The notes beneath the pieces are model-generated. The model was given only the letters and a program-made list of their open reading frames with translations, was not told the origin of the DNA and ran no database searches. The translations under genes were made by a program, and so were the position numbers. This document shows, one piece after another, positions 41,203-62,850 of a stretch of 64,000 nucleotides of DNA; the first letter of the stretch is position 1, and the number at the start of each line of letters is the position of its first letter. Origin of the DNA: an uncultured Chloroflexia bacterium (GTDB lineage: Bacteria; Chloroflexota; Dehalococcoidia; GIF9; UBA5629); NCBI GenBank assembly GCA_963751585.1, contig CAVVVB010000003.1, forward strand, positions 8,667 through 72,666, in the 5' to 3' direction.

Positions 41203-41279
41203 AAGCCGTCACGACTTGCCGAAAATCGAGTAGTGCCTTTTGTTCTCCCCTAGTAACGGCACGTTGTTAGCAACAGCGG

Positions 41280-41753: not shown

Positions 41754-41767
41754 AGAGGAGGCAGAAG

Positions 41768-42034: not shown

Positions 42035-42124
42035 CCAGGCTGAGAACCTCAAGCATTACAGCGACCTGTGTCCCCGTGAACTCTCGGGTTTCTGCATATC
42101 TAGCCTGTCTGGGAGGATGTGACT

Positions 42125-43291
42125 ATGTGGTATTTTGCTAATCCGTTGATCGTATATGGCGACGACGCGCTGGAGCACCTTAACGGAATCGAGGGCAAGC
42201 GCGCCCTTATTATCACCGACCGCAATGTGGTGAAGTTAGGTTTTGTAGAACGCGTGGGCAAGGAGCTGAAAAAAGCCGGCCTCGGCTATCGCGTTTTCGA
42301 TGAGGTGGAGCCCGACCCGTCGGTGCAGACCATCAAGCGCGGTGCCCAGGTGGCGCTGGAATATCAGCCGGACTGGTTGATCGGCATCGGTGGCGGCTCG
42401 GCCATGGATGCCGCCAAGGCTATACGGGTACTGTACGCCCGGCCGGACGTGGAACCGAATGCCATCAACCCCACTGAAATTCTTCATTTGCGGGAGAAGG
42501 CGCAGCTGGTGGCTATTCCTACTACCAGCGGCACCGGCGCCGAAGTGACCTGGATGATCGTAATCACCGACACGGAAAACCAGCGGAAGACGGGAGTGGC
42601 CTCGCGGGAGACCATGCCTGACGTAGCCATTCTGGATACGTCACTGGTGATGGGCTTACCGCCGCAGATCACCGCCGATACGGGCATGGATGCCCTGACG
42701 CATGCCATCGAGGGCTACGCGTCTAACTGGCGGAGCGATTTCACCGATGCCCCGGCGCTGGTGGCGGCTAAGCGCATCTTCGAGTATTTACCGCGCGCTT
42801 ATAATAACGGCTCCGATATGGAGGCGCGCCGGCACATGATGTATGCGGCCACACTGGCCAGTATGTCATTCGGCAATGCTATGGCCGGCCTGGCCCACAG
42901 CCTGGGCCATTCCCTGGGTGGCCTTTTCCATACTCCGCACGGCCGCGCCGTGGGCCTGTTTTTGCCTTATACCATGGAATTTCTTTTAGAAACGACGGGC
43001 GAGCTGTATGCGGAGATTGAGAGGTTCGTCGGCCCCGATCCCGATTTGCATCGGGACCTATCGGCGCGTGCATTGGTGACCAGAGTCCGTGATCTAGCCA
43101 AGAGCATTAACCAGCCGCTGTCATTGCGCCAGGCGGGTATAGAGAAAGCAGCCTTTGATGAGGCACTGCCGGGCCTGGTGGAACGGGCTGAGAGCGAGGC
43201 GACTACCATCACCGTGTCTCGCATACCGGACAGTGCTGAAGTGGAGCGGATTTTCCGCTATGCTTATGAGGGTAAGCCAATAGATTTCTAG
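42125..43291 (+). CDS. Iron-containing (class III) alcohol dehydrogenase
   Basis: The GGGS motif (LIGIGGGSAMDAAKAI) and metal-binding His cluster (DALTHAIEGY...HSLGH) are present. Confidence 0.9.
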   Translation: MWYFANPLIVYGDDALEHLNGIEGKRALIITDRNVVKLGFVERVGKELKKAGLGYRVFDEVEPDPSVQTIKRGAQVALEYQPDWLIGIGGGSAMDAAKAIRVLYARPDVEPNAINPTEILHLREKAQLVAIPTTSGTGAEVTWMIVITDTENQRKTGVASRETMPDVAILDTSLVMGLPPQITADTGMDALTHAIEGYASNWRSDFTDAPALVAAKRIFEYLPRAYNNGSDMEARRHMMYAATLASMSFGNAMAGLAHSLGHSLGGLFHTPHGRAVGLFLPYTMEFLLETTGELYAEIERFVGPDPDLHRDLSARALVTRVRDLAKSINQPLSLRQAGIEKAAFDEALPGLVERAESEATTITVSRIPDSAEVERIFRYAYEGKPIDF

Positions 43292-43305: not shown

Positions 43306-45152
43306 ATGGATGGTTATACGGGCAAAGTGCTGGTTGTCGACCTGTCCGCTAAGGACATACACGACGAGCCGCTCAACGAGGGGCATGTCCGGCAGTTCAT
43401 AGGCGGCGCCGGGCTGGCCTGCCGCTATCTCTACGACCTGGTGGATGCCGCCACCGACCCTCTGGGGCCGGGTAACCCGCTGGTGTTCATGTGCGGTCTG
43501 CTGAACGGCACCACTGCGCCGAGCTCCGCTCGCTGGGTGGTGGCAGCGCGTTCGCCACTGACGGGTATATACGGGGAAGCGAACTGCGGCGGTTTCTTCG
43601 GCTCGGAGCTGCGCTTCGCCGGCTACGATGGCCTAATAGTGAAGGGCAGCTCGGCATCTCCTGTCTATCTTTATATCACAGACGTAAAAGCGGAACTCCG
43701 CGACGCCGCGCATCTGTGGGGACAGGATACGTATGCGACTGTGGCCGCATTGAAGAGTGAATGCGGCGACCCGTTGACGCGTGTGGAGTGCATAGGCCAG
43801 GCCGGCGAGAAGCTGGCACCTTGTGCCGCTATTATGACTGAGCGGGGACGCGCCGCCGGGCGACCGGCATGGGCGCGGTAATGGGATCGAAGAAGCTCAA
43901 GGCAATCGCCGTCCGCGGCAAGTCCAGATGGCCCATGGCTGAAGCTCAGCGCTTTAAGACGGTGACCCGGCAGTCGGCAGAAGGTTTGAAGGATGCTCTG
44001 GTCAGCCAGGTCTACCGTGATTTCGGCACCTCGAGCTGGGTGGACGCGGGCATCGCCTTTGGCAGCATGCCCAATAAGTATTTCACTCTGGGCGCCTTTC
44101 CCGAGTCCACGGCCCTGAGTGGGATGACCATGGCGGAGACGATTTTGACCGGCAAGAGCACTTGCTTCGGCTGTCCTATTCGCTGCGGGCGGGTGGTCCA
44201 TGTGAAAGAGGGCAAGTACGCTCTGCCCGATGGCGGCGGGCCGGAATATGAGACCGTGGCCGCCTGGGGCAGTATGTTGTTGATCAATGACCTGGCCGCC
44301 ATCAACTACATTAACCACCTGGTCAATGCCTACGGGCTGGACTCTATCAGCGCTGGAGTGTCCGTTGCCTTTGCTGTTTGTCTCTATGACCTGGGAGTCA
44401 TTACTAAAAAAGATACCGATGGACTGGAGTTGAGGTGGGGTAACGTCGATGCTGTCATTGAGCTGGTGCACCAGATGGGACAGAGGAAAGGCTTCGGCGC
44501 AAAAGTGTCTGAAGGTGTGCGGCGGATGGGTGAGCGGTATGGACGGGCCGGTGACGCAGCGCATGTGAAGGGGCTGGAAATTCCTATGCACGACCCGCGT
44601 GCCTTTGCCTCTATGGCGCTGGTATACGCTACGGGGCCACGTGGCGCCTGTCATAACAAAGGCGATTGTTGGGAGGTGGAGTTCGGTATGGGCAATCCCG
44701 ACCTGGGGCTGGTGCCCAGTGACCGTTTCAGTGACGAGGGCAAGGCGGTCTGGGTCATCAAGACGCAGAACTGGAGAGCCTTCACCGATTCCATAGGGCT
44801 ATGTCACTTCGCTGTGATGCCAGTACAGGAAACGATCGATATGATAAAGGCGTCAACGGGACGCACCTTCGATGTGGATGGCATCCTGAATACGGGTGAG
44901 CGAGTCTACCAGCTGCAACGGTCATTGGCCTGCCGCCTGGGCACCACCGCCAAAGATGACAGGCTGCCTGATATGTTGATGCGGCCGCTGGCCGAGGGAG
45001 AGACCCAGGGGCACGTGCCCAATTTAGAAAAAATGCTCCCGGAGTACTACGCGCTGCGCGGCTGGGACCCGGCCACGGGGAAGCCGTCCCGCGAGCGACT
45101 GGAGAGCCTGGGCCTGGCAGGCGTGGCTAACGACCTGTGGGGCAAAGCTTGA
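43306..45152 (+). CDS. Aldehyde:ferredoxin oxidoreductase (tungsten AOR family), split by a 1-bp deletion near 43858
   Basis: AOR N-domain (MDGYTGKVLVVDLS...) in ORF 43306..43881 and AOR domains 2-3 in ORF 43869..45152 (GAVMGSKKLKAIAVRG...). Restoring one base in cgaccggc gives the canonical RGRAAGRTGMGAVMGSK junction. Confidence 0.9.
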
Positions 45153-45596: not shown

Positions 45597-48275
45597 TTAT
45601 TGGTCCCCGGCCAGGACTCGATCCAAACATAAACCGTAGCCCTTGTTATAAGGCCTCTGGAACGCCTCGGGGTGCTGCTTCATCAGCTCGTCAAGATTGG
45701 CCTTCTCCACTTCGACCAGGAAGCCGCTGACCACCATCCCGGTGGCGTTTGGCGAAGTCACCTTGTGCGGCGTTATAGTGTTGATAGCGCCGCCTCTATC
45801 GAGTTCTCCGGGGACTATCGGGTCATATCTGGCGCCGTGATCCATGGAGACGGCACCCGGCATCATTCTCTCAGTCACATAGGCGCCGCCCAGGACGGCA
45901 CCCCTCTCGTTGTATATCTTGACCACGTCGCCATTCTTTATGCCCCTGGCGGCGGCATCCGCTGGATTAATCCAGAGCGGCTCGTAAATGTAGCCATCCG
46001 GCCCTCTGACTTTGCAGGTCGGGACTTCTTTGAACCAGGAGATATCATCGAGATTGGCATGTACTCTCCACCTCGGCGTGGTTGGAGACTGATCAGCAGG
46101 GGATATTTCTTAGCCCTTTCGACTGGAGAGCCTTTCATCGTGGATCTCTCCCTTAGATCCAGTGCGGGTACGGGCGGCCTTTCATTATCATCCGGGAAGT
46201 ACTTGGCCAGCTTCTGGGAGTAGAACTCTATCTTGCCGGATGGGGTCTTCACCGGATATTTCTCGGGGTTCTCGTAGAACTCCAGCATATATGACCTGGG
46301 GTTGACTTTCGATTCCATTAACCCGGGATCTGTCGGGATGACGAAATATCCCTGTTTTTTCAATTCTTCCCAGCTGATGAATCGGTGCCGCACCGGAATT
46401 ATCGAAGCCAAACTTAATCCAGTCCTCAACGCTTCTGCCTTCCGTGTATTCTTTCAGCAAGCCCAGTTTCTCGGCAATCAGGCAGACTATCTCGTAGTCG
46501 CTCCTGGATTCGCCGATAGGTTCGATGCATTTTCCCTCGTGGTAAATAAGGTCGCACCTCTCGCTCATGATATCCATATCTATGTCCTGCTCCTCGAATT
46601 TGGTGTTGACCGGCAGGATGATATCGGCAAACAGGCAATCGTTTTCCAGCCAGGGGTGCTGGGCTAGGATGAACTCTATCTTCGGGCTTCTCAGCGCCTT
46701 GATATAGCTGTTGCTGTCATTCCAGCAGGTTATCCAGCAGGGCGAATCGGTCCATATCATGTGTACTTCCGGAGCAGCCCTTCGCCGGATAGGTGTATTT
46801 CACGAACTGGTCTTCAACGGGTTCACGCCAGAGACGTGGTGCCATACCAGCTGATGGGCGGGTTGAGAATGGCATCGTGGATGAGGTCTTGGGGATAAAT
46901 TGCTTGGTCTTATCTGCCGTTAGCGTATTATCTGTCAGCCTCGCCACCGGAATGGGACCACCCAGCCGGTCGTATTCCTGAACTTGTCGATCGATATCCC
47001 GTGGAACGCCACGGCCTGATAGGCACTTGCCTGTCCTCGTGGAAGCATACATGCGCATGGGCATAGAACGCGCTCTTAGGCCATGTCCAGAATACCCATT
47101 CACATCTGTGCCTGGTGAACTCCCGGTTTTCCCAGTCCCTGCATCGCCAGCAGCAGCACCTCCAGCCTGGCAGGTTCGGTCGAGTATGGCCCCCTGATGC
47201 CGGGCCCGCCATTGCCGTGCGACTATCGACGTCCTCTTGGTGGCCCACTCCCTGGCCAGCGCTTTGATTGTCCTCGACCGGGACACCGCATTTCTCCGCG
47301 GCCCATTCCGGCGTCTTGGCGATCCCGTCTTCTTTCCCCAGGACATATTCCTCGAACTTGTCGAAGCCGAAGGTGTGAGTGGCCACATATTCCTTATCGT
47401 AGGTGCCTTCGGTAATCCAGACATAGGCTATGGCCAGCTGCAGGGCGGCATCGGTGTTGGGCATTATCGGAATCCACTTATCGGCATGGACGGCCGCCCC
47501 GTAGTTCAGGTCAGGGCAGATATATATAGATTTTATGCCCAGTTCGGTGAACCAGTAGCACAGCCGGCTGGCCATCTGCCCCTCGAATCCCCAGGGTGTG
47601 GTTTCCGGGTCGCATCCCCAGAACAGAGAAGCTCGGTGTTCTCGGACGATATCAGGCATCACATTGAGTTGCGGCTCCATCGCCCTACGGGTTCCATCCC
47701 CCAGACATGTTTGGCTCCCCAGTACCATCCTTCCCAGCTGTCCGGATTTCTGGTCTGCAGCGTGTAACCTCCCAGTAAGCTGAGAAGCATGGCGTTTACA
47801 CCCGTGGGCCGTATGCACCACTTTTGTCTCCCCGTGTCCATCCGCCTGGCAAAGTATGGCATGTGGCCCGTATTTTTTCTTTACCTCTTTATCTCGCTGG
47901 CTATTATTTCCAGAGCCTCATCCCAGGAGATTCTGACGTATTTGCTCTTCGCCTCTGTTCTGTGGATTTCTGTCGCCACTGGGGTCCCAATCGACTCTCT
48001 TTAACGGGTAGAGAATCCTGTTGGGGGAATAAAACGCGCTTTTTGTAACCCAGGCTGAACGGAGGCAGTAACGTCTTCATTGCGTGCCTGGTAGACCTTG
48101 CCGCGCGCCTCTATGTCCAGGGGCCGAGCTCCTCGGGCTTGTACTTCCAATCATAGTGGAATGGCCTGATCCTGATTATTTTGCCGTCCTTAACATCGAC
48201 AGCCACGACGTTGCTGGCCAGGCCACCTTCCCCCACCATCCCCAGGCCCTTTATAAACGTTTTCTCTTCTTTCAT
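45597..48275 (-). pseudogene. Pyrogallol-hydroxytransferase-like molybdopterin oxidoreductase large subunit, copy A, disrupted by at least 6 frameshifts or stops
   Basis: Seven collinear ORF fragments (48111-48275 N-terminus MKEEKTFIKGLGMVGEGG...KIIRIRPFHYDWKY; 47659-47862; 46928-47821; 46717-47424; 46188-46760; 45938-46429; 45597-45926 C-terminal Molydop-binding domain) align in order to copy B. No N-terminal Fe-S Cys motif or twin-arginine signal. Confidence 0.75.
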
Positions 48276-48336
48276 GTTTACTCCCTGTCTTACGCGTTTT
48301 CTTTCTTGGATAACTCTATGTCTTCTAGGCTGTCTC

Positions 48337-50891
48337 TTAAGTGATTTTGTCTCCGGCAATCCAGGAATCGAGTATGGGGCCGGCGTTGGCGTCGTACGGC
48401 CTGTCAAATGCCTCGGGGTAAGCCTTCTTCAATTCTCCTAAGTCTACCGGCTCGACCTCAACCAGAAAGCCGCTGGTAACCTCTCCGGCGGCATTCCTGG
48501 AGACTACGTTGTGCGGACATATGGTGTTATTGGATCCACCCCGATCGAGCTTTCCCGGAACTATGGGGTCGTATCGTGCGCCGTGGTCCTGGTAGACTAC
48601 CCCGGGCATTATCCTCTCCGTCACGTAGGCGCCACCGAGTACGCCACCCCTTTCGTTAAATACGTTAACGATATCACCAGGCTTTATGCCTCTGGCGGCG
48701 GCGTCAGTTGGATTAATCCAGACGGGTTCATACATGTAACCATCCGGGCCTTTGATTTTGCAGGTGGGGATTTCCCTTAGCCAGCTGACATCATCGAGTT
48801 GAGCGTGCAGCCTCCATCGCGGATGGTTCGACACAATAAGCAGGGGATATTTTTCGGCTCTGGGATGCAGCAGGCTTTCCTGATGTGTCTCGCCGTATGG
48901 TATCCAGTGCGGCACCGGTGGCCGCTCGTCATCATCGGGGAAATGTTTGGCTAAATTCTGGGAGTAAAACTCTATTTTGCCGGATGGTGTGGTGAGGGGA
49001 TTTGCCTCCGGATCCTTATAGAAGCCCAGCATACCGGCCGGACGTTTCTTCCAGTTCGGGTCGGTGGGGACAACGTAATATCCCTTTTCGTTGAACTCGG
49101 CGAAACTGATATCTTTTTGAGCACCCGAGTTTTCAAAACCGTGTCTTATCCATTCCTCGACGGTCTTGCCTTCTGTATACTCCTTAAGTAAACCAAACTT
49201 CTCGGCTATGAGGCAGACAATTTCGTAGTCGCTCTTCGATTCTCCCAGCGGTTCGATGCACTTTTTCTCCGGGTAGATGGAATAACGTTCCTCGGCCAGC
49301 ATATCCGACCCGATGTCTTCCTCCTCCAGTTTAGTATTGACGGGCAGGATTACGTCGGCAAATAGACAATCGTTTTCCAGCCACGGATGCTGGGCCAATA
49401 CGAATTCAATCTTCGGGCTCCTGATGGCCTCTATTATACTGGTTGCCGCCATTCCAGCAGGCTATCCAGCAAGGCGTGTCCGTCCATATCATGTGTATTT
49501 CCGGGCAGCCTTCGGCCGGGTAAGTATATTTGACGAATTGGTTTTCCACCGGCTCCCAGGCTATCGTGGTGCCGTACCAGCTGATGGGCGGATTGAGAAT
49601 AGCCTCCGGGACCAGGGTCTTGGGGATGATCTGTCTGGGTACGTTTGTCCGGACATCTGATCCACGGTACGCTGCTCTCAGATGTGGCCTGAACTTGGCG
49701 CCGGTGAGCTCGAAGCTGGACATGTGAAGCTGGTGAGCTCCCGGTTTCCCCAGTCCCTGCATCGCCAGAAGCAGGACCTCTAGTCTGGCGGGCTCGGTTG
49801 AGTAGGCTGACCTGATATAGCTGCCTCCGGCAAGGTGGGCTATAGATGTTGTCTTAGCTGCCCACTCTCGTGCCAGGGCTTTGATTATCCTTGACGGCAC
49901 GCCGCACAGCGGCTCGGCCCACTTCGGTGTCTTGATAATGCCATCCTCCTGCCCCATCACATATTTCTCGAATTTGTCGAAACCGAAGGTATGCGTGGCC
50001 ACATAGTCCTTATCGTAAGTTCCTTCGCTCATCCAGACGTAGGCTATGGCCAGTTGCATGGCCGCATCTGTGTTTGGTCTTATGGGGATCCATTTATCAG
50101 CGTGGATGGCGGCGCCGTAGTTTAAGTCGGGACAGATATAGATGCTCTTTATTCCCAGTTCGGTGAACCAGTAGCAAACGCGGCTCGGGCATTTGCTGGC
50201 TGAAGCCGAACGGCGTAGTTTCCGGGTCACACCCCCAGAACAGGATCGTGTCGGTATTATCGGCAACGTCGTTGACGCAATTTGTCTGGGGCCACATCAT
50301 GCCTACCCAGGGTTCCATCCCCCAGGCATGTTTGGCGCCCCAGTACCACCCTTCCCAGCTATCGGGATTTCTGGCCTGCAGCGTGTAGCCTCCGAGGAGC
50401 TCGAGAAGCCGGTGCATGCACCCGTGGGTGCCGTGGACTACTTTTGTCTCGCCATGCCCGTCTGCCTGGCTGAATACGGCATACGGCCCGTATTTCCGGT
50501 GGACTCGCTTAATCTCATTAACGACTATGTCCAGCGCTTCATCCCACGAGATGCGGACAAATTTGCTCTTACCTCGATTTTGCGGGTTTCTTTCGCCCTT
50601 GGGGTTCCAGTCAACCCTCTTCAGGGGATAAAGGATCCTGTTGGGAGAGTATACGCGCTTCTTGTAGACCAGACTGAAAGGCGGCGGCAACGACTTCATG
50701 GACTGCTTGAACACTTTGCCGCGCGCTTCTATAGTCCAGGGCTGCAATTCCTTTACGCTGTACTTCGAGTCATAGTGTAACGGCCGGATCCTGATTATCT
50801 TGCCGTTACTGACATCGACAACACCGGGGCTACCCCCGTTGCCTACAGCGCACAGGCCGAAGCCTTTAACGATAGATTTATCGTCTTTCAT
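48337..50891 (-). pseudogene. Pyrogallol-hydroxytransferase-like molybdopterin oxidoreductase large subunit, copy B, about 850 aa with 2 frameshifts
   Basis: Three collinear ORFs: 50097-50891 (MKDDKSIVKGFGL...ISWDEALDIVVNEIKRV), 49406-50266 and 48337-49452 (C-terminal ...GDIVNVFNERGGVLGGAYVTERIMPGVVYQDHGARYDP...). This is the most intact of the three copies. Confidence 0.75.
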
Positions 50892-50956
50892 GATTTAAAG
50901 CCAGTTCCTGACGCCCAGCATGCCGGAATCTAATTGGCGTCCGGGCAATCGTGGCA

Positions 50957-51766
50957 CTAAGATAGCGGTATATCTCCCATGTTGACATCTTTCTCCGTGC
51001 TTATCGAGTCTATCGCCTTGGACTTTCCGCCGGATTCGATCTTAAGTGAAAAGGTAGCTACCGGCAGGCCTTCGAACCAGAAGTCGCCGAAGTCATCTGT
51101 GGTCGCTGTCAGCTTCTTGCCGTTCTTCGAATCGGTAAGCGTGCAGGTGGCTCCAATGATGACTTCTTTGGCTACCGGGTCGTAGAGGGTGCCGCCGATG
51201 AATTTTCTGGGTATGTTCAAATAATGTACCCTAGGCTTGGTCTTAAACTCGGGATTGAGCACCTCCGCCCTGTTTATTAGCTCTTTGAGCTTGGACTCAT
51301 CGGCAAATTTGATGGCTTCGGTGGGGCAGGCATCAGCACATCTGGGTACTTTCCAGCCGTTGTCCAGCAAATGAGCGCAGCCGGTGCATTTCTGAGCTAT
51401 GTTGAGATCTTCGTTGAAGTAAATGGCGTGGTAGGGGCAAGCGTCAACGCAGCTCCGGCAACCCGTGCATTTTTCCGGGTCTATGATAACCAGCCCATCT
51501 TCTCTCTTGTATATGGCGCCCTTTATCGGGCATGCCGGGATACAGGGCGCATTATCGCAGTGCATGCACAGGGTGGGGACATAGTGCATCTTAACCTTGG
51601 GCACGCTGCCTCTGACGTATTCATTCATTTTCAGCCAGAACTGGCCGGTGTCAGGCTGGGGTTTGGCTATGGGAGTCCAGTCGTTGCCGACATGTTCGTC
51701 CTTGCAGGCAATCTGGCAGCCGTAGCAGCCATTGCAGATCGACACATCTATAACAAAGGCTTTCAT
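50957..51766 (-). CDS. Fe-S (multi-[4Fe-4S]) electron-transfer beta subunit with a C-terminal Ig/transthyretin-like beta-sandwich (BthL-like)
   Basis: 269 aa. Ferredoxin-type Cys clusters (CNGCYGCQIAC, CMHCDNAPCIPACP, CTGCRSCVDACP, CTGCAHLLD...CADACP), then a C-terminal beta-rich region of about 80 aa. Confidence 0.85.
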   Translation of the reverse strand: MKAFVIDVSICNGCYGCQIACKDEHVGNDWTPIAKPQPDTGQFWLKMNEYVRGSVPKVKMHYVPTLCMHCDNAPCIPACPIKGAIYKREDGLVIIDPEKCTGCRSCVDACPYHAIYFNEDLNIAQKCTGCAHLLDNGWKVPRCADACPTEAIKFADESKLKELINRAEVLNPEFKTKPRVHYLNIPRKFIGGTLYDPVAKEVIIGATCTLTDSKNGKKLTATTDDFGDFWFEGLPVATFSLKIESGGKSKAIDSISTEKDVNMGDIPLS

Positions 51767-51769
51767 TGT

Positions 51770-54393
51770 TATATACCCCCTTCAATCCAGGCATTGAAGC
51801 GCAGTCCGGAAGCCGGGTTGTAATCTCTTTCAAAGGCTTCCGGATATTTCTTTCGCCATTCTCCATCTCTTCCATGGTGACCTTTTCCACCTCAACCAGG
51901 AAACCGCTGGTAGCCATGCCCCAGCAGTTCTTTGAAGTCCCGTTGGCCGGGGAGATGAGGTTATTGGCGCCGCCTCTATCGATGTATTCTTCAGGGCCGG
52001 CGGCGATCATATCGATCCTGGCTCCATGGTCCTGGTATACCACCCCGGGCATGATTCTCTCCCATACGATGGCCCCGCCCAGGACAATACCCCTCTCGTT
52101 GAACATCTTAACGATGTCGCCGTTCTTAATGCCTCTCTTGGTGGCGTCTGTCGGGTTAATCCAGACAGGCTCGTACATATAGCCATCGAAGCCCTTTGAC
52201 TTTGCAGGTCGGGATTTCCCTGAGCCAGGTGATATCATCATTCTGGGCATGTGTTCTCCACCTCGGTGATTGGACACCAGCAGCAGAGGATATTTCTTGG
52301 CCCTGTCGCTGGATAGCCTCTCATCATGGCTCGGACCTTTCTCAATCCATTTGGGAATCGGCGGCCTCTCCTTGTCATCAGGGAAGTGCTCGGCCAGTCT
52401 CTGCGAGTAGAACTCCAGCTTGCCGGAAGGAGTCTCCAGAGGGTTTTTCACCGGGTCTTCATAGAAAAGTCTCAAGCCGGCCGGGTCTTTCTCCCAATCT
52501 GGGGCCGTCGGGATAATATAGTATCCCTTTTCCTTAAACTTCTCCCAGCTAATCAGTTCTTGCATAGCCTGAGATCTCGTAACCATACTTAATTTTCTCC
52601 TTGACGGTCATACCCTCTGTATATTCCTCATATAGACCCAGCTTCTTGGCTACCTCACCGACTGCCTCATAATCGCTCATGGACTCTCCCAGCGGCTCTA
52701 TAGCTTGCTCTTCAATAGATCACTGCCTTTCAATGGCGTTACCATGTCGACTTCAGCTATGTCCTCTTCTTCGAGCTTGGTATTGATCGGCAGGATAATA
52801 TCGGCAAAGACAGTATCGTTTTCCAGCCAGGGATGCTGGACGACAAAACATTCTATCTTCGGGACTTCGGAAGGCTTCAATCGAAAGGTACCGTCATTCC
52901 AGCAGGTGGTCCGGCAGGGATTATCCATCCAGATCATGTGAATCTCGGTGCCGCCCTTCTTCTTTGGGTATGGGATAGGTATATTTTATAAACTGGTCTT
53001 CGACCGGCGCCATGAAAATGCAGTGCTACCCCAGGAATGTAACCGGCGGATTGAGGATAGCCTGATGGACGAGGGTCTTGGGAATAATCTGCGGCGTGTA
53101 GTGTCAGCATCAAACGTGCCCGGTCCAGACTATATCCATGACAGGCCGTATGGTCTTGAATGTTTACCGGGCGAGGCGTATCTATCGTCCGGGTATGCCG
53201 CCGCCCATTTTGCATACTGGTGGACTCCCGGTTTACCCAGTCCCTGCATACCCAGCAAGCAGCACTCCAGCCTGGCTGGCTCATGCGAATACGGCCCCCT
53301 GATATAGGAACCTCCGTAGAAATGTATCATCGAGGTTATCTTGGAGGCCCATTCTCTGGCCAGGCCTTTATGGTCCATTCCGGGACACCGCATTTACCGG
53401 AAGCCCACTCCGGTGTCTTGGGCACTCCCGTCTTCTTTTCCCATGACATAATCCGAGAATTTATCAAAGCCCACCACGTGTGTAGCTACATAATCCTTAT
53501 CATAGGTTCCTTCGGTAATCCAGATATAAGCGATAGCCAGCTGCAGGGCGGCATCGGTATTGGGCAGTATGGGAATCCATTTATCGGCATGAACGGCCGC
53601 GGCATAGTTAGGTCCGGGCAGATGAAGACCTGTTTTATTGCCGATTTCGGTCCAGAAATAGCAGCACCCGGCTGGGGAACTGGCCGGCAAAACCCCAGGG
53701 CGTGGTCTCCAGGTCAGCCCCGATATGCACCAGCATTTCAGTGTGCTGGGTAACATCATTGAGCAAATTATCGGCCGGGCTCATCATGGCCCATCTGTCC
53801 GCTTCCCCACACATGCTTGGCTCCCCAGATACCATCCCTCCCAGCTATCCGCATTTCTGACGGCTAGGGTATAGCCTCCCAGCTTTCTCCATAAGCAACA
53901 TCTGGCAGCCATGCGGGCCATGAATAGTCTTGGTTTCCCCATGTCCATCGCCGTGGCAGAGCACGGCATAGGGCCCGTATTTTTTCTGTACCCGCTTAAT
54001 CTCATTGGCGATAATGGTGGTGGCTTCATCCCAGGAAATCCTCTTATATTTGCTCTTGCCCCGGTTCTGCGGATTTCTCTCGCCGTTGGGGTCCCAGTCC
54101 ACCCTCTTCAGGGGATATAGTATCCGGTTGGGAGAATAAACACGCTTTTTGTAGGCAAGCTGATAGGGAGCTAGTCAGTCCTTTAAGAGCGGCTCGAAGA
54201 CCTTCCCATTCTTCTCAATCTTCCAGGGATTAATCTCTTTCTTGGTGTATTTCTCATCGTAGTGATAGGGCCTGATCCTGACTATTCTGCCATCTTTAAC
54301 ATCTACGGCCGACATGTCGCTATTCAAGGTGAAGGAACACTGTCCCAGTGATTTCCGCACCGTCTTGTCTGGCTTAGTGTTGATAGGCTTCAC
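51770..54393 (-). pseudogene. Pyrogallol-hydroxytransferase-like large subunit, copy C, disrupted by at least 8 frameshifts (3' boundary approximate)
   Basis: Fragments 54175-54393 (GTG start, GGAGG RBS; MKPINTKPDKT...VDVKDGRIVRIRPYHYDEKY), 53845-54102, 53635-53835, 53394-53759, 53130-53393, 52698-52937 and 51651-52586 align in order with copy B. Confidence 0.7.
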
Positions 54394-54703
54394 GACTCGT
54401 TACCTCCTTCTTCGCTGTTTTTGTCTGTTATTCCGGTACGCATCAAAAAGCTAAATGATACCAGGCGGGCTAACTATCCGGCTGGAACTGTGGCCAAGAG
54501 GATCAACGTCATGTTTCCGGATAGTCCTTTTTGAGCGCCTAAATATTAAGTGGGAAGAATTAGAATGTCAAGTAGAGACATGTGTACGCCTGCGGTTGTT
54601 GACAAACTCCAAATCTTGGCCTACAATTCACCTCGTTCTAACGCCATTTGAGATCAGTAGTAATTTAACATATAAGAAATCGTATAGGAGGGAGTAATCG
54701 ACA

Positions 54704-55957
54704 ATGAAGAAGGTGATTCTAGCGGCAATATTGGCTGTACTCGTTAGTGGCTTGATTCTCGTTGGCTGCGCGGCGCCAGCACAAGCGCCAACAACGCAAA
54801 CGCCGGGACCTACGGCAAAACAACTTGACGTAGGCGTTTGTAGCCCGCTAACCGGGACCATGGCATTCCTGGGCAACCAGACAGTCAATGCGATCTTGCT
54901 GGCCATTGAGGATCAGAATGCAAAGGGTGGTGTGACTATTGGCGGGCAAAAGTATTTGATAAATCCCATCCAGCGTGACACCAAAGCGGATCTCGTTGTT
55001 GCCAAGTCTGTCGCCGAGGAACTGGTATTTGACAAGAAGGTTAAAGTTATCTCCGGGCCTTTTCAAGCCGATGCCGTCGGTATTCAGGCAGTTAGCGAGC
55101 CGAACAAAGTTCTGGCATTCTTCATCCAAGTCCTTTTACCGTCAATGACTGGACCAAATAAGCCATACAGTTTCTTTGTTTCTTTCCCTATACCGCAGAT
55201 GACTTATAAGCTGCTAGATTATACGGATAAGAAACAGTTAGCGGCAGGGAAAAATGTGCTTTCTGTAGAGGCCGATACACCCGATAACCCGTCCTTTGTG
55301 AATGCGGAGGAGTCGGCTTGCAAACTCCTCGGCTATAACTATCTTGGTTACGAGAAATTCTCGATTGATACGAGGGACTTTGGGCCATTCGTTGCGCGGG
55401 TGCTACCGCACAAGGCGGATATCATAGATACCGGCAACTCAGGGGGTGTAATGGGAGGGGTGCAATGCGTTATGCTCAAGCAGTTGAGGGATGCCGGCTT
55501 TACTGGCCCGATACTTATACCGGCAGCCCCTCCAGAAGCCGTCCTGGAGCAGACCGTGTCTGCGCAATCTCTTAACAAGGTGGTAAGTCAGTATATCAAC
55601 GTGAATGATCCCGTAGTGAACCCGAAATACGCCGATGTGGCCAAGCGGTATCAGGCGAAGTACAATGAGGAGGCCGTCGACATTGTTCCGGGCTACTACA
55701 ATGTTATGGCGGCTTTGTTCGATTTTCTAAATACCCAAAATACCATGGACTCGACTGCCTGGATGGACGGGTTTTCCAAATACTGCTGGGATGGCACCAT
55801 GGATGCAAAATCTTGCTGGATTGAGCAAGTTGGGGATGGAATCAATCGGCGGGTAGCTCAAAATAACTGGGTGACCCACTATGAGAACGGCAAGCCGGTA
55901 ACCGACTTTACCGCCCCGTTTCCCTGGGATTTGTTTGTAAAACCACCGTCCCAGTAA
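54704..55957 (+). CDS. Periplasmic solute-binding lipoprotein, LivK/Peripla_BP_6 family (paralog 2)
   Basis: Lipobox LILVGCAAP. Collinear similarity to 28212 and 57231 (GVCSPLTGTMAFLGNQ...EDQNAKGGVTIGGQKY). Confidence 0.8.
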   Translation: MKKVILAAILAVLVSGLILVGCAAPAQAPTTQTPGPTAKQLDVGVCSPLTGTMAFLGNQTVNAILLAIEDQNAKGGVTIGGQKYLINPIQRDTKADLVVAKSVAEELVFDKKVKVISGPFQADAVGIQAVSEPNKVLAFFIQVLLPSMTGPNKPYSFFVSFPIPQMTYKLLDYTDKKQLAAGKNVLSVEADTPDNPSFVNAEESACKLLGYNYLGYEKFSIDTRDFGPFVARVLPHKADIIDTGNSGGVMGGVQCVMLKQLRDAGFTGPILIPAAPPEAVLEQTVSAQSLNKVVSQYINVNDPVVNPKYADVAKRYQAKYNEEAVDIVPGYYNVMAALFDFLNTQNTMDSTAWMDGFSKYCWDGTMDAKSCWIEQVGDGINRRVAQNNWVTHYENGKPVTDFTAPFPWDLFVKPPSQ

Positions 55958-56065
55958 ACAATAAAACGAAGAAATCCGCCAACTAGTGGTGCAATAGGGC
56001 AGGGATCTCCGATGTCGTAGATCTGGATCGGAAGATCTCTGCCCTCTCTTGTTGTTACCTAACTG

Positions 56066-57133
56066 CTACAACCCGAGAAGGTTTGCGGCATTCGAATGAA
56101 ACAGTTTCTCTTTGTCGCCGCTGCTTATCGGCAGGTTCTCCATGAATTCCACTGCCTCCTTGCCCGGCTCGAAGGGATAGTCGGCGGCAAACATTATCCT
56201 GTCCATGCCTATGGACATTTGTGTGCACAGCAACGCCGGGTACCACAGCATGCCGCTGGTGGTGACGTAGAAATTATCTTTGAAATACTGGCTGGGGAGT
56301 TTCTTGAGTCGCTTGGTGAGCGGACTGGCATCGGCCCCGGTTTCCTTCTCCACATTTGTCGTCAGGTTTCTATCCGCTGAGCTTTGTACGCGGTCGTCGA
56401 TTCGCGCCATCCAGAACGGCAACGCTTCGCCCAAATGGCCAAGGATAATCTTCAGGTTGGGGTAGGCGTCAAATACGCCGCTGCAAATGAGGCGTATGGC
56501 CGTTAGTCCCCCCTCTACGGCAAATCCCCACATAGAGCCCGTTAGTTGTGGGTAGCCTGAATACTGTTTGAGCCTGTCGGGCGACGGGTGTATGGGGTGT
56601 ATATATATGGGCACTCCTAGCTGGGCTGCCCTTTCATAGACGGGCCAGTATTTCTTGGCATCAATGAACTCGCCCTGGACATGGGACAATACCATGGTCC
56701 CCTTGAAGCCAAGCTGCTTTACCGCCCTTTCCAGCTCATTGGCCGCCGCCTGCGGGTCGTTAAGGGCGATGGCGGCAAAGCTGGCGAACCTATCGGGATG
56801 CTTCTTAACGGCGTCATGCAGAAGGTCGTTAACCTTTCTGGTTAGAGCCGTGGCTTCGTCAACATCGAGCAGGTTTACCTCCGGATTAAACGACAGCACC
56901 TGCATGTCGATACCGGCCTTATCCATTTCTTTTAGTCTGCCTTCTCCGATGTCACATAGCTTGCTAAGGATCATATCCGGCAAGTATCCGTTGTATACCT
57001 TCGGCGAGTCCCACCAGCGCCAGACCTTCTGGCCGTTTTCTATGACGCTGTCCAGCTTCGGATATTTCTTCCTCGCTTGCATATGATCCATGAAGACCTG
57101 GGTAAAACAATGCTCCTCGATGGCTATTTTCAT
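56066..57133 (-). CDS. Amidohydrolase-2 family metal-dependent decarboxylase/hydrolase (LigW / ACMSD / gamma-resorcylate-decarboxylase-like)
   Basis: 355 aa with the N-terminal metal motif KIAIEEHCF (compare the LigW IALEEHF). TIM-barrel His/Asp positions fit (HPIHP, LGHLGE, AADYPFE). Confidence 0.8.
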   Translation of the reverse strand: MKIAIEEHCFTQVFMDHMQARKKYPKLDSVIENGQKVWRWWDSPKVYNGYLPDMILSKLCDIGEGRLKEMDKAGIDMQVLSFNPEVNLLDVDEATALTRKVNDLLHDAVKKHPDRFASFAAIALNDPQAAANELERAVKQLGFKGTMVLSHVQGEFIDAKKYWPVYERAAQLGVPIYIHPIHPSPDRLKQYSGYPQLTGSMWGFAVEGGLTAIRLICSGVFDAYPNLKIILGHLGEALPFWMARIDDRVQSSADRNLTTNVEKETGADASPLTKRLKKLPSQYFKDNFYVTTSGMLWYPALLCTQMSIGMDRIMFAADYPFEPGKEAVEFMENLPISSGDKEKLFHSNAANLLGL

Positions 57134-57230
57134 AAGACACCTTCCTTAAAATCGATTATTACCAGTTTAGAGAAGCCGGGCGCATCGACTTGTTCGGTGC
57201 GTTCGGCTTACTCGGATTCCGTTGGCTGAA

Positions 57231-58475
57231 TTATTTTGTGACAAACATATCGTCGGGAACTTGAGCTGAGAACTCGGTCACGGGCTTACCCTTCTTGTAT
57301 TCAGAGACCCAGGTACCAACTATCACGCGTCGGTTGATTCCGTCGGCAGGTTCTCCAACCCAACGAGACTCGACCCCGAACAGGTTCTGCCATTGGTATT
57401 GGGCAAAGCCTTGCATCCAGGCGACGGTGTCCATGCTGTTCTGTGTATTCAGAAATTCAAAGAAAGCCTTCATGACGTTGTAGTAGTAAGCCACAATGTC
57501 GACGGGCGCGGCGTTGTACTTAGTATTGAACCGGGTCATCACGTCGCGATATTTCGGGTCAACTATCGGATAATCTATGTTCGCGTAGTAAGTAACCACC
57601 TTGTCAAGAGATGCCGGAGGTACGAGTTCCTCTACGATATCTTCGGGGGGAGCCGCCGGTATCGAAACAAGGCCGGTGAAGCCCTCTTCTCTTAGCTGTT
57701 TTACCAGAAGGGCGCCCAATCCTCCCATCGAACCTCCCACGCCGCCGGTGTCTATGATATCGGCGTTATGGGTTAGAACACGGGAGATTATGGGCGTAAA
57801 GTCCTTTGTGGTAGTCGGGACTTTTTCGAAGCCCAGGTAATTCATACCCAGTCGCTTGCAGGCAGCTTCTGTATCCGCAGCAAACGTCGGACCGGTGGGT
57901 ATATCAGCTTCGATGCAGAAGACCGTTTCAGCTTGAGGGTAGAACTGGTGAATGTAAGCTAGAGGGCTCCAGGTCATCTGTGATACGGTGGGAGCGCAAA
58001 AGAAACTGTACGGCTTGTTGGGGCCAGTCATGCCGGCTAATGCCGGATTTGTGCCAAACAATAGGACCTTATTAGGCTCACTGACTGTCTGCACGCCTGC
58101 GCCGTCAGCAATGAATACCCCTGCAATTACCTTAACTTTTTTGTCGAAAATCAGTTCCTCGGCGATGTTCTTGGCATCCACGATGTTGTGCTTGGTGTCA
58201 CGGACAATGGGGTTCAGCGTGTACTTTTGCCCGCCAATGGTGACGCCGCCCTGGGCATTCCGGTCCTCCATTGCCATCAGAATTGAGTTGCTGATTTGGC
58301 CACCAAGGAATGCCGATGGACCGGTCAATGGGCTGGCGATGCCGATGTCCAGCGTCTGAACTGCCGCTGGAGCTGGTGTTGGTGTTGAGGATGGCGTCTG
58401 CCCGGCACAACCACCAAGAATCAACATGCTGACCAGCGCGGCCATTACTGAGATTAGAAACAATTTGTTCCTCAT
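57231..58475 (-). CDS. Periplasmic solute-binding lipoprotein, LivK/Peripla_BP_6 family (paralog 3)
   Basis: Lipobox LILGGCAGQ with the same family architecture (GIASPLTGPSAFLGGQ...EDRNAQGGVTIGGQKY). Confidence 0.8.
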   Translation of the reverse strand: MRNKLFLISVMAALVSMLILGGCAGQTPSSTPTPAPAAVQTLDIGIASPLTGPSAFLGGQISNSILMAMEDRNAQGGVTIGGQKYTLNPIVRDTKHNIVDAKNIAEELIFDKKVKVIAGVFIADGAGVQTVSEPNKVLLFGTNPALAGMTGPNKPYSFFCAPTVSQMTWSPLAYIHQFYPQAETVFCIEADIPTGPTFAADTEAACKRLGMNYLGFEKVPTTTKDFTPIISRVLTHNADIIDTGGVGGSMGGLGALLVKQLREEGFTGLVSIPAAPPEDIVEELVPPASLDKVVTYYANIDYPIVDPKYRDVMTRFNTKYNAAPVDIVAYYYNVMKAFFEFLNTQNSMDTVAWMQGFAQYQWQNLFGVESRWVGEPADGINRRVIVGTWVSEYKKGKPVTEFSAQVPDDMFVTK

Positions 58476-59577: not shown

Positions 59578-60051
59578 TCATTCTTTAACCGGATATTTTG
59601 ACCTCTCACTGGCATTTGGATACCAGCCATCTTTAACATGCTCTTTAATATCAAATTGAGGTACATAGGGTTTAATATCCAATAACGGAGTCTCATCCAG
59701 CATATCCACTTCACCAATCTCCAGAATATTGTCCTTGACTTTCAAGAGTTTTACCATTGAGAGTCCGATCGGATTCGGCCGGGCAAAATAACGGATAGCG
59801 AAGATACCTTTCTTTTCCTTATCCAGAAAAGGTTTAGTCAGCAGTTGAAAACCTTCCGCCTTATGGAAGTGGTAAAGCAAGATCAAGTGAGAAAAGCCTT
59901 CGATATCTTTAAGCCCTGCCGCATATTCCGGAAATAATTCAATATAGCCCTGATTGTCAGGGGAGAAACAACCCTGAATAGGAGTATCTTCTTTCCTGGT
60001 GTAAGGGGTGTGAATAACTCCGATGGGTTTATAGATAATTGCGTCCGGCAT
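59578..60051 (-). CDS. TsaA/YaeB (TrmO) family tRNA-methyltransferase-like protein
   Basis: The C-terminal 153 aa of track ORF 59578..60453 (IIYKPIGVIHTPY...GIFAIRYFARPNPIGLSMVKLL). An internal ATG at 60051 with a GGAGGG RBS marks the start. Upstream, the same ORF encodes the ModC TOBE domain. Confidence 0.75.
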   Translation of the reverse strand: MPDAIIYKPIGVIHTPYTRKEDTPIQGCFSPDNQGYIELFPEYAAGLKDIEGFSHLILLYHFHKAEGFQLLTKPFLDKEKKGIFAIRYFARPNPIGLSMVKLLKVKDNILEIGEVDMLDETPLLDIKPYVPQFDIKEHVKDGWYPNASERSKYPVKE

Positions 60052-60054
60052 AAT

Positions 60055-61205
60055 TCCCTCCACAAGTTCTAAAAGACTGTTGTAACAAAAAGAGAAATTA
60101 CAGATAGTCTCTATGAAAAAATCTAATTCTGTAATAACTACCACATGTTCCGCCGGCAGATATAAGTAGCTTGATTGGCCTTCACGGATTACATCTGAAT
60201 CCGGCCTGGATAATATCACCATGATATAATGCCGGGTCGTCCCGACGGTATTCACATGGAAATAGTAATTAGTGGCAGTAACCCCTTCGACTACCCGGTC
60301 TACCGTACTTAAAAATGTATTTTCACCCGGTTGATCCCTCAATTGAATATATTCCGGCCGGATACCACAGTGACATGCTGATTGGTCGCCAGATTCATGG
60401 TTTTTTGGAATAATGGCTCTGACGGAACCACCTAATTCAGGGACTTTTATCAAGGCGCTCGATTCCTTCGATTTCGGTGACAGAGCCTTCCATCAAATTC
60501 TTAAATCCTACCAGCCTGGCGACGGTATGATTCGAGGGGCAGGTAATTACTTTCTCCTTGTGATCATGCTGGACGATACGTCCCGACTCAAATACGGCGA
60601 TTCTTGAACTGAGCTTATAACCCTCGGTTAAATCATGAGTGACAAACAGCATATTGCCTTTGTAAAAGCGCTGCAAAGCCTGAAGCTCAAGCTGCAAGCG
60701 TTCTTTCACCAGGGAATCCAGGGCAGAAAAGGGTTCATCCAGCAATAAGACTTCAGGTTCGGGCGCCAGAGCCCGGGCCACAGCCACCCGCTGCTGCTGC
60801 CCCGCCGATAGCTGTCTGGGATATCTGTCTCCCAGCCTCTGGATATTCATTTTCTCCAGCAACTCGGAGACTCTGTCTTTTATCTCCTTCGCAGTGAGAT
60901 GGCGGATACCATAGCCGATATTCTGATTTACGGTAAGATGGGGGAAAAGAGCATAGTTCTGGAAGACGAATCCTACCTTGCGCATCTGGGCCGGCAGGCT
61001 GAATTCCGCTGGCTGAATCCAACAGCACTTTATCATTAAGCTTGATGTAGCCTTCATCCGGCCGGATCAGCCCGGCAATACATTGCAGGGTCATCGTTTT
61101 TCCGGAGCCGGAGGGCCCCAGGATCGCCAGGATTTCCTGGTTTACCGAGAAAGCCACATCCAGGGTAAATCCCGGCAGTTTCCTTTTTACCCGGACTTCC
61201 AGCAT
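60055..61205 (-). pseudogene. modC: Molybdate/tungstate ABC transporter ATP-binding protein ModC-like (ATPase plus TOBE domain) with at least 2 frameshifts
   Basis: Walker A (GPSGSGKT) in ORF 60753..61205, and signature/Walker B (LSAGQQQRVAVARAL, LLLDEPFSALD) in ORF 60437..61057, in a different frame. The TOBE-like region continues into ORF 59578..60453. Confidence 0.7.
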
Positions 61206-61268
61206 CAGTCTACCTCCGAGTTGGAGATAGACCGGCGTATCTTCATTTTAAAAATTGAGAACTTCACT

Positions 61269-61969
61269 TTACTCCACACTTTCCCGGTTCACCACCTGTG
61301 TTCTGGCTTTGTAGGTCTTTCCTTTCCAGTAAGCAATCGCTGCCAGAGCGGCGAAGGCAATCACCAGCACTATCCCCACCAGGACCAAAGCTTGATTCAT
61401 ATCCCCGGCCTGAATGGAAAAATAAATCGCTACAGGAATGGTGGCGGTTTTACCCGGAATATTACCGGCTAGCATCAAGGTAGCCCCGAACTCTCCCAGG
61501 GCAACGGGCCAGGGACAGCACGGTCGCCGCGGCTACTCCCGGCCAGGCCAGAGGCAGAGTAACCGACCAGAAGACTCGCCATTCGGAGGCTCCCAGTGTC
61601 CGGGCGGCATCTTCAATATGGCTATCCACCTGTTCAAATGCCCCGCGGGAGGTCATATACATCAGGGGAAAGGACATCACCGCCGCCGAAATCACGGTGG
61701 CCGGCCAGGAAAAAACAACAGTGGTATCAAAAAGGGAAAGGAATTCTCCGATGGGACCGTGTTTGCCGAATAGTCAACAATAATCCCAGTCCTACTACGG
61801 TAGGCGGCAGGACCAGAGGCAAAATAAAGAGGCCGTCGATCAAGTTTTTGAATTTCCCCGAGTAGCGCGCCATCCAGCGAGCGGCGGCAATCCCCAGAAA
61901 AAAGGTGATTGCCGTCGCTACTAGGACCGTCCTCAGGGAAATCCATAATGGCGACAGATACGTTTCTGT
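61269..61969 (-). pseudogene. modB: Molybdate ABC transporter permease ModB-like with at least 2 frameshifts
   Basis: Three collinear fragments (61727-62005 N-terminal TM region; 61462-61695 with the ABC-permease EAA-like loop ...DAARTLGASEWRVFWSVTLP; 61269-61478 C-terminal TMs). Confidence 0.7.
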
Positions 61970-62004
61970 CATAAGACTTGCCTCATGGATTTCTGACAAG
62001 AGCA

Positions 62005-62850
62005 TTATTTGCTGACCATTGTGAAACCATATTTTTCAAACACTGCTTTAGCTTGAGCGCTGAACAGGAAATTAAGGTAATCTTTGGCCGCATCCGGATT
62101 TTTACTGGCTTTGATAACGGCTACCGGATACACAATTTTAGCATTAATATCCGCCGGGGCGCTGGCCACTACTTTGACCTTATTGGAGGTTAAGGCATCG
62201 GTTGAATAGACAATACCGGCATCCACATTGCCGCTTTCAACATAGGTCAAGACCTGGCGCACATCAGCTGCCCAGGACTTCCTTGGGTTGTACTTGGGCG
62301 GTAATGCCGAGTTCGTCAAAAGCTTGATGGGCATAAGTTCCGGCGGGGACGGATTTCGGATCGCCAATGGCCACTTTTTTCACTTTATCGGAGGCCAGGT
62401 CGTTGAAACTGGTAAGGCCAAGAGTGCTGTCAGATGGGAACAATCATGACAACTTTGTTATTAAGAAGGTTCTTGCGGGTGTCATTTAAAATAATTCTTC
62501 CTTTTGCAGATTATCCATTTGAGTGGCGGCTGCCGAAATGAAAACATCTGCCGGGGCGCCGTTCTCAATCTGTGTTTGCAGTGTGCCGGATGAGGCGAAG
62601 TTCGGGGTGATGGTCACATTGGGTTTCCCCTGGGTATAAAGATTATTAATTTCTTTCAATACATCGGTCAGAGCTGGCGGCGGCAGACACGTTCAATTCC
62701 ACGAGCTTGGCCGCTGAGGCAGGTGTAGTTTCCGGGCGCCCGCGTTGGTGTAGATGTGCTGGCGCAGCCGCCCATGACCACTAGGAATAAGAGTAAGAAT
62801 ATCAGACCAAATGCAAAAAAGTTTGTCCTTTTAGAGACCTTTAAACTACC
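62005..62850 (-). pseudogene. modA: Molybdate-binding periplasmic lipoprotein ModA-like, frameshifted (5' boundary approximate)
   Basis: C-terminal ModA domain in ORF 62005..62367 (DAGIVYSTDA...AKIVYPVAVIKASKN). N-terminal parts, in other frames, include a lipoprotein signal (LIFLLLFLVVMGGCASTS) near 62830. A T10 homopolymer lies at 62862-62872. Confidence 0.65.

Follow-up and report, generated by a model that had tools for sequence, protein, structure and literature searches.

What does a cytoplasmic molybdenum (Mo) enzyme system with three catalytic subunits and one iron-sulfur (Fe-S) partner do in an uncultured Chloroflexia bacterium, and are its genes, which are broken in the assembly, whole in the organism? 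We analysed a 64,000-nucleotide (nt) stretch of this genome, called the window here (GenBank assembly GCA_963751585.1, contig CAVVVB010000003.1, positions 8,667 to 72,666 of the forward strand). Three homologous large-subunit (alpha) genes, copies A, B, and C, stand there in tandem on the minus strand, with the gene of a 269-residue (aa) Fe-S subunit (beta) between C and B, and the original prediction, made from the bare sequence, is confirmed in this respect. We read the locus as a Dehalococcoidia-type island for a cytoplasmic Mo enzyme system of the AthL/BthL family, which would act on phenolics and whose frameshifts would be technical; we give this reading a probability of about 0.6. The genes on which it turns are the following.

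51769-54393, minus strand: copy C, AthL-like large subunit of the Mo-bis(pyranopterin guanine dinucleotide) (Mo-bisPGD) type, about 870 aa when stitched, first gene of the array
50957-51766, minus strand: beta, Fe-S subunit, intact, 269 aa, between C and B
48337-50891, minus strand: copy B, AthL-like large subunit, 850 aa when stitched, with two +1 frameshifts
45597-48275, minus strand: copy A, AthL-like large subunit, about 880 aa when stitched, with about 24 frameshifts
54704-55957, plus strand: Peripla_BP_6 (LivK-family) lipoprotein, intact, 417 aa, convergent with the decarboxylase gene
56066-57133, minus strand: Amidohydro_2 decarboxylase of the LigW / gamma-resorcylate decarboxylase group, intact, 355 aa
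57231-58475, minus strand: second Peripla_BP_6 lipoprotein, intact, 414 aa, 56% identical to the binding protein at 54704
28212-29453, plus strand: third Peripla_BP_6 lipoprotein, intact, sharing 45-46% identity with each of the other two, directly behind an OYE-like gene
63390-64000, plus strand: second beta paralog, cut by the window end, 65% identical to the first beta

The array runs C-beta-B-A, and because its intergenic gaps measure only 2-65 nt, it looks like one transcription unit; the TAA stop of copy C lies 2 nt upstream of the beta ATG. From 45.4 to 54.4 kb the map of open reading frames (ORFs) shows no long minus-strand Mo-enzyme ORF, only overlapping fragments, 50-371 aa long, each encoding part of a molybdopterin oxidoreductase; the longest unbroken piece measures 371 aa in B, 311 aa in C, and 297 aa in A. 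The 850-aa open frames that had been claimed are thus not there, since all three large-subunit genes are interrupted; earlier doubts about intactness were justified for A and C, yet they had spared B, which is also broken by two frameshifts. The genes were stitched by a custom frameshift-aware protein-to-DNA alignment guided by intact homologues, which replaced tblastn because the latter merged frames. A single beta shared by three alphas, as had been proposed, is plausible, the pairing of alpha and beta being one that we infer.

Both subunits lead to the same solved enzyme, the pyrogallol-phloroglucinol transhydroxylase AthL/BthL of Pelobacter acidigallici (4V4C/D/E). Stitched copy B has its best PDB match in 4v4c_A (E 2.4e-143, 482 bits), followed by dimethyl sulfoxide (DMSO) and trimethylamine N-oxide (TMAO) reductases at no more than 298 bits, while beta matches 4v4c_B best (E 5e-56), its residues 4-267 aligning with BthL 6-273. 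The N-terminal fragments of B and C score 35.1 and 36.5 bits, respectively, for the N-terminal domain PF21423 ('AhtL-like_1st', cut-off 27), which the homologues of copy A also carry, and PF00384 (Molybdopterin) and PF01568 (Molydop_binding) are found on fragments of A, B, and C as well as on all homologues. The large subunits, as had been stated, possess neither a Tat RR motif nor an N-terminal CxxCxxxC; their N-termini, read from the translations, are MKDDKSIVKGFG..., MKEEKTFIKGLG..., and MKPINTKPDK.... The window proteins resemble AthL/BthL in their cytoplasmic location, in a large subunit free of Tat signal and Fe-S cluster, and in the presence of PF21423. None of the curated NCBIfam models reaches its cut-off for the proteins of the locus.

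The automatic JGI names of homologues, 'S/N-oxide reductase-like' and 'TMAO reductase', would instead make these proteins cytoplasmic reductases of S- or N-oxides, akin to BisC, DorA, or TorA. Those type III enzymes do share the Ser-ligated core with the window copies, including the Mo-bisPGD fold and the missing FS0 cluster, and DorA and TorA supply the next-best PDB matches. However, the NCBIfam models all score far below their cut-offs (bisC_fam, for instance, 401 versus 1017 bits), the AthL N-terminal domain is present, and a BthL-type beta accompanies the alpha gene in 45 of the 83 related loci of our context set, which comprises 80 genome loci and three contigs fetched by exact protein look-up, with their ORFs clustered. 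Both features lie outside the solved DorA and TorA chains, which have neither the AthL N-terminal domain nor a beta partner, and we consider an S- or N-oxide reductase highly improbable.

Within the AthL/BthL family, the position of the three copies is distinct. They are 57-65% identical to one another; B is 80% identical to the intact protein P0001, and the best intact homologue of A is P0121 (75%). A, B, and C diverged long ago as paralogs, and each has separate orthologues in other metagenome-assembled genomes (MAGs) of Dehalococcoidia or Chloroflexota. For comparison, AthL residues 1-870 were rebuilt from HMMER alignments; the window copies are 36-38% identical to this sequence, and an AthL-proper set in the fetched loci is 46-62% identical. 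In a neighbour-joining distance tree, rooted on DorA and without support values, A, B, and C occupy three sub-branches of a large clade that is sister to AthL-proper. The assignment to the AthL/BthL branch therefore holds at the level of the family, as PF21423 and the best matches of both subunits to 4V4C indicate, but not as orthology to AthL. The sister clade is very large, with thousands of proteins at E below 1e-20.

The conserved residues divide in the same manner. The D-S-W motif, which contains the Mo ligand Ser175 of AthL, is kept in A, B, and C, and the equivalents of His144, Asp174, Ser175, and Trp176 are conserved in all three copies and in 66-67 of 67 sister-clade members, so that AthL and the window copies agree in the Mo-ligating Ser and in its Asp, His, and Trp neighbours. 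Ser as the Mo ligand is described in a review of the superfamily (PMC10100899). A second group of residues is lost. Tyr152, Tyr404, and Tyr560 reportedly have active-site roles in AthL (Messerschmidt et al. 2004); their invariance was computed here, and all three are Tyr in 13/13 AthL-proper sequences and absent from A, B, and C. Specifically, A, B, and C have gaps at positions 404 and 560 and T/G/G at 152, and across the sister clade position 404 is a gap in 50/67 and position 560 in 67/67 members. Arg153 is K or R in AthL-proper and P, A, or T in the sister clade. AthL thus has the Tyr404 and Tyr560 loops and Tyr152/Arg153, whereas the window copies are without the loops and have positions 152/153 replaced.

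The beta subunit shows a comparable mixture of likeness and difference. As had been noticed, it combines several ferredoxin-type Cys clusters (16 Cys in four motifs) with a C-terminal domain, here a CarboxypepD_reg-like beta-sandwich; the Pfam domains are Fer4_11 and CarboxypepD_reg, and BthL is likewise ferredoxin-like with a C-terminal beta-sandwich. BthL, however, has three Cys motifs and the window beta four, and the window has three alpha genes per beta. The difference lies in the third Cys motif, which is degenerate in BthL, EKAKGKKELLDTCPY, and complete in the window beta, EKCTGCRSCVDACPY, so the latter is predicted from its sequence to carry four [4Fe-4S] clusters. The extra motif (two CxxCxxCxxxC) occurs in 17 of 29 betas located at most 200 nt from sister-clade alphas and in 0 of 11 by AthL-proper alphas. 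The second beta paralog, announced from position 63390, is indeed present and reads CTGSRLC where the first has CTGCRSC, a replacement of a cluster-ligand Cys by Ser. It is placed first, like the beta-then-alpha order of the copy-A orthologue in assembly GCA_041643135.1 (L164), so another alpha gene may follow outside the window.

This four-cluster beta, together with the NrfD-type membrane anchors of some related loci (5/83, all Desulfobacterota), suggests that the enzyme transfers electrons, as a hydroxylase or dehydroxylase would, and is not a redox-neutral transhydroxylase. Redox-active relatives fit the same picture. Resorcinol hydroxylase RhLS of Azoarcus anaerobius belongs to the same Ser-ligated RhL/PgtL family, is phenolic-hydroxylating and redox-active, and 3,5-dihydroxybenzoate hydroxylase DbhLS of Thauera aromatica AR-1 is a further redox-active member of that family; the hosts of both are denitrifying Betaproteobacteria. 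In the superfamily review, RhL and PgtL figure as one Ser-ligated family whose members are cytoplasmic and hydroxylate their substrates (PMC10100899).

The LigW-like gene beside the array gives this chemistry a possible starting point. The amidohydrolase-2 protein reported at 56066 with a LigW-like N-terminal motif does begin with MKIAIEEH, and it matches PF04909 with 134 bits. Its PDB matches include 4inf (4e-64; LigW/LigW2), 3s4t (1e-61) and 2dvt (7e-56), both gamma-resorcylate decarboxylases, with 4qs5 and 4icm falling within E 4e-64 to 7e-56 and 2,3-dihydroxybenzoate decarboxylase also among the closest; ACMSD (3e-26) and IDCase follow far behind the LigW group. The window protein resembles the 5-carboxyvanillate decarboxylases LigW/LigW2 and the gamma-resorcylate decarboxylases over the HMMER-aligned residues 53-353, and ahead of these it has a Glu-x-His element (IEEH, residues 5-8) that may provide metal ligands; it differs in its anaerobic setting and has no NCBIfam match. 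The three LivK-family paralogs are, as described, Peripla_BP_6 lipoproteins with lipoboxes, 45-56% mutually identical, and they are without transporter partners, since no Liv-type permease or ATPase is present among the annotated ORFs of the window. They fall far short of the curated cut-off for branched-chain amino-acid binders, for which model NF011933 yields 42.8 and 25.9 bits versus 477, and match only the general Peripla_BP_6 fold. Their PDB matches comprise 4evs, 4f06, and 4ey3 (E 1e-8 to 6e-6), which we take to be aromatic-acid binders, the amino-acid binder 3ip5 (6e-10), and urea binders at comparable values. The suggested binding of aromatic acids may hold, but the sequence does not separate these lipoproteins from amino-acid or urea binders.

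To place these genes in a wider setting, we compared the window with the 83 loci. Beta is the dominant neighbour of alpha, usually 0-7 nt downstream, and several alphas in tandem with a smaller number of betas are a common arrangement, as in the alpha-alpha-beta-alpha-alpha order of L001. Liv-type ABC genes also occur (ATPases in 12 loci, permeases in 9 and 5), as do SDR (12), MFS (9), CCG and FAD_binding_4 (8-9), AFOR (7), and DctP (5) genes. Cyclase (PF04199) and thiolase genes stand mainly beside the AthL-proper genes of Firmicutes. The closest relatives of the window genes belong to Dehalococcoidales and Chloroflexota MAGs, and L164 is the closest long-contig relative of the window decarboxylase. 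Within 20 kb, L164 contains four Peripla_BP_6 genes, Amidohydro_2 copies 75% and 83% identical to the window protein, an AFOR gene, and a copy-A orthologue (74.6% identical) with its own beta; one of the binding proteins is 72.5% identical to that at 54704 and has the same convergent pairing with Amidohydro_2. The same gene families as in the window locus are thus grouped in at least one further genome, which supports a functional link. Additionally, L164:8595-14593 holds, head to tail on one strand, a binding protein, a LigW-like decarboxylase (75%), an AthL-proper alpha, and a three-motif beta. This alpha, directly downstream of the binding protein and decarboxylase genes, is 47% identical to AthL and has the FPGYAD motif, an arrangement that fits decarboxylation followed by a true AthL-type step.

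Are the window copies then genuine pyrogallol-phloroglucinol transhydroxylases, with gallate-like acids decarboxylated to pyrogallol and pyrogallol isomerised to phloroglucinol? 4V4C is the best solved relative of both subunits, a LigW-like decarboxylase adjoins the array, and genome papers annotate such genes in this sense (PMC3971608, PMC4959651). Nevertheless, the likely true orthologues are held by the separate clade 46-62% identical to AthL, beside cyclase (PF04199), thiolase, and SDR genes, and the window copies lack Tyr404, Tyr560, and Tyr152, their beta has a fourth cluster motif, and no phloroglucinol-pathway gene was seen near the array. We regard this assignment as very unlikely, so that the transhydroxylation originally proposed for the locus remains an analogy (sister clade, three missing Tyr, four-motif beta). 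The same caution applies to published genomes. Hug et al. 2013 reported two AthLS-type operons each in the Chloroflexi RBG-2 and RBG-1351 (PMC3971608), and Wasmund et al. 2016 three pyrogallol hydroxytransferase genes in the Dehalococcoidia single cell DEH-C11 (PMC4959651). These genomes resemble the window in phylum and in having several copies per genome; in both reports polyphenol use was inferred from annotation alone, AthL-proper and the sister clade were not separated, and no enzyme was characterised. The 'pyrogallol hydroxytransferase' genes of Dehalococcoidia, Actinomycetota, Desulfobacterota, and Bathyarchaeia are mostly sister-clade genes without the AthL-proper tyrosines, and pyrogallol use should not be inferred from them. 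Multi-copy AthL-like loci in subsurface Chloroflexi are already published, and the window is one more example; what it adds is the conserved association of such genes with a LigW-like decarboxylase and with binding proteins that lack a transporter.

We propose the following scheme for the phenolics-directed enzyme system, the order of its steps and its substrates being inferred. The lipoprotein binding proteins would capture the substrate, and the LigW-type decarboxylase would make a phenol from the imported hydroxybenzoate. Three alternative catalytic subunits (Mo-bisPGD, Ser ligand) would then work with one four-cluster electron-transfer subunit, and these Mo enzymes would introduce, eliminate, or move hydroxyl groups on the ring of a phenolic. 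Judged by analogy to their characterised relatives, such hydroxyl chemistry is the most likely activity, and the locus probably acts on plant phenolics, with a substrate that is probably other than pyrogallol. The four-cluster beta suggests a redox reaction, hydroxylation or dehydroxylation, rather than redox-neutral transhydroxylation. As conserved company of such arrays, LigW-like decarboxylases and LivK-family lipoproteins would point to a concrete substrate class, the hydroxybenzoates.

The second half of our question concerns the frameshifts, which extend to some genes on both sides of the array. The flanking features are listed next.

42119-43291, plus strand: Fe-type alcohol dehydrogenase, assigned by Pfam, possible accessory gene
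43306-45152, plus strand: aldehyde:ferredoxin oxidoreductase (AFOR), assigned by Pfam, possible accessory gene
63035-63169, minus strand: molybdenum cofactor (Moco) riboswitch RF01055, full-length Rfam match of 61 bits, preceding the modA/B/C-like genes
region 60437-63169, minus strand: modA/B/C-like molybdate transporter genes (modABC), ORFs with an SBP_bac_11 match, all three fragmented

The modA/B/C-like genes behind the Moco riboswitch probably supply the cofactor metal. The frameshift-aware alignment gives about 24 frameshifts in A, about 23-25 in C, and two in B, the latter being +1 events near 50192 (one base too many in a CCC or AAA run) and near 49438 (a surplus A). Copy C is 83.9% identical in DNA to an intact orthologue on metagenome contig L088, and the comparison reveals 25 internal indels, all of 1-2 nt, of which 18 are insertions. 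Copy A, 79% identical in DNA to its L164 orthologue, has 18 single-base insertions versus 5 single-base deletions. The modABC genes show 11 net +1 events versus one net +2 (at least 11 net +1 frameshifts), for which transporter genes of L166, rejected as orthologues at 32-35% identity, were used only to count frames. Frameshift density in A, C, and the modABC-like genes is about one per 110-250 nt. Single frameshifts are found in AFOR, which a single-base deletion near 43870 divides into AFOR_N and AFOR_C ORFs, in an MFS gene, in an OYE-like gene, and in the second beta (near 63900). No same-species sequence for a direct comparison of indels was found in the GTDB-representative, protein, and metagenome collections scanned, the best identities being 68% in the GTDB-representative scan, 80% (B) and 75% (A) in the protein searches, and 86% in the metagenome scan with beta. 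Exact-protein look-ups with beta, BipA, and one of the binding proteins gave no match.

Three simpler accounts of this pattern were considered and dropped. In-frame stops do not indicate decay, because under a stricter stop penalty nearby indel pairs explain all of them except a TGA at 54177. The damage is not limited to Mo and tungsten (W) genes, as the MFS and OYE-like genes each carry a frameshift. Nor are the errors confined to homopolymers, since in the L088 alignment about half of the insertions in C are without an identical neighbouring base. The motif HIGADLETTP of copy C, which might be taken for decay, is common to intact members of its subclade.

The coding sequences themselves remain well preserved. 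Of 220 alignment columns with at least 97% conservation among 199 intact homologues, A mismatches 3, B 1, and C 10; the homologues themselves have a median of 2 and a maximum of 8. The surplus in C is gone once its own subclade is the reference, where it mismatches 13/426 invariant columns (leave-one-out controls 4-36); A mismatches 14/347 (controls 14-34). Mismatches at codon positions 1/2/3 amount to 7.9/5.9/33.9% for C versus L088 and 14.8/8.4/39.3% for A versus L164, a third-position excess that is the signature of purifying selection. Signs of relaxed constraint, namely lost invariant residues, change at positions 1/2, and larger deletions, were sought in A and C and none was seen, and the large-subunit genes contain at most one nonsense codon. 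In bacterial mutation spectra, substitutions outnumber indels several-fold (the ratio is usually 5 or more). About 24 indels would thus come with about 20 or more lost invariant residues in A, where three are observed. From this indel pattern, sequencing or assembly errors, such as those of poorly corrected long reads, are the most likely source of the approximately 50 frameshifts in the three copies, and the organism probably has three intact large-subunit genes.

Several observations weigh against the reading of the locus as an intact, phenolics-directed island. The chemistry of the sister clade is argued from analogy. No ABC permease or ATPase partner for the binding proteins lies in the window, and a number of the nearest B homologues have no beta beside them. 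The linkage of binding proteins and decarboxylase to the array, although it recurs in L164, is weak across the wider family: a search with the window decarboxylase found Amidohydro_2 in 4/80 genome loci, and relatives of the window binding proteins are only 25-28% identical and occur in 4/83 loci. As to the frameshifts, the indel-rich stretches match gene limits (A, 45641-48120; C, 51861-54398; modABC, 60475-62733), and the first beta, the binding proteins, the decarboxylase, and all housekeeping genes are clean, whereas a plain random error process predicts no such borders. The in-frame TGA at 54177 in C stands opposite a conserved Leu and may be a real nonsense change. The coincidence with gene borders could possibly result from long-read patching of gaps at multi-copy families, from strain-variable segments of low coverage, or from a reference-guided frame correction that skipped some genes.

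These borders are what one would expect if A, C, modABC, AFOR, and possibly B were true pseudogenes, and the organism were losing a Mo- and W-dependent catabolic island. The heavily affected genes are also all Mo/W-related (A, C, modABC, AFOR, and an Oxidored_molyb gene), about 35 kb of housekeeping genes (RelA/SpoT, CysK, IscS, NadA, RecN, BipA, and others) remain open, and C has its one possible nonsense codon. Decay, however, should have left more than indels. Invariant residues are retained as in intact homologues with no substitutional decay, divergence falls mainly at third codon positions, and no deletion exceeds 5 nt, the events being of 1-2 nt with an insertion-to-deletion ratio of about 3:1; many insertions lie outside homopolymers, unlike natural slippage, and the non-Mo MFS and OYE genes are frameshifted too. 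Loss of function is therefore unlikely in our judgement, and technical indels remain the preferred explanation. Such localised indel errors in an assembly would be mis-annotated as pseudogenes. It would be more extraordinary still if the single-base insertions were real, with genes under purifying selection (A, C, modABC) carrying 20 or more non-slippage 1-nt insertions inside their own borders. We give this very little credence; if true, it would mean a gene-targeted insertional process, or expression that relies on RNA- or ribosome-level correction, and we know of nothing of the kind in bacteria.

Some further observations concern homologues of the array and the remainder of the window. Two B homologues without beta, which are the closest intact ones, have distinctive neighbours: that at L081:7092-9986 adjoins a URO-D / B12-binding / URO-D methyltransferase set resembling an O-demethylase system, and that at L083:9173-9937 lies directly downstream of a short-chain dehydrogenase. 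Next to the modABC-like genes, the TOBE domain of ModC runs in frame into the TrmO gene inside ORF 59578-60453. A second small catabolic-looking stretch occupies 22229-28180, with the third binding-protein paralog directly after it. It includes an Oxidored_molyb protein shortened at the C-terminus, an MFS transporter at 22948-24220 with a single frameshift around 23968, part of a DAPG-hydrolase-like protein at 24493-25008, and the OYE-like flavoenzyme at 26212-28180, also with a single frameshift, around 28000.

Two stretches, 36000-42000 and 16000-20000, have a low GC content of 0.40-0.44, compared with about 0.50-0.55 elsewhere. The former encodes, at 36917-38224, a fusion of an N6/N4 DNA methylase with a DCD-like domain and, at 38908-40758, a helicase-like protein of the Z1/ResIII type, and is probably a foreign restriction-modification or defence island; the latter encodes proteins without a Pfam match (15909-17832) and a metallo-beta-lactamase-fold protein. 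Finally, positions 6748-10006 are syntenic with L166:12697-16043, from a Chloroflexota MAG, and comprise a MacB-like permease, an ABC ATPase, an unassigned protein, and an FtrD-like protein; the first two proteins are 70% identical to their L166 counterparts, which is the best hint at the phylogenetic neighbourhood of the window.

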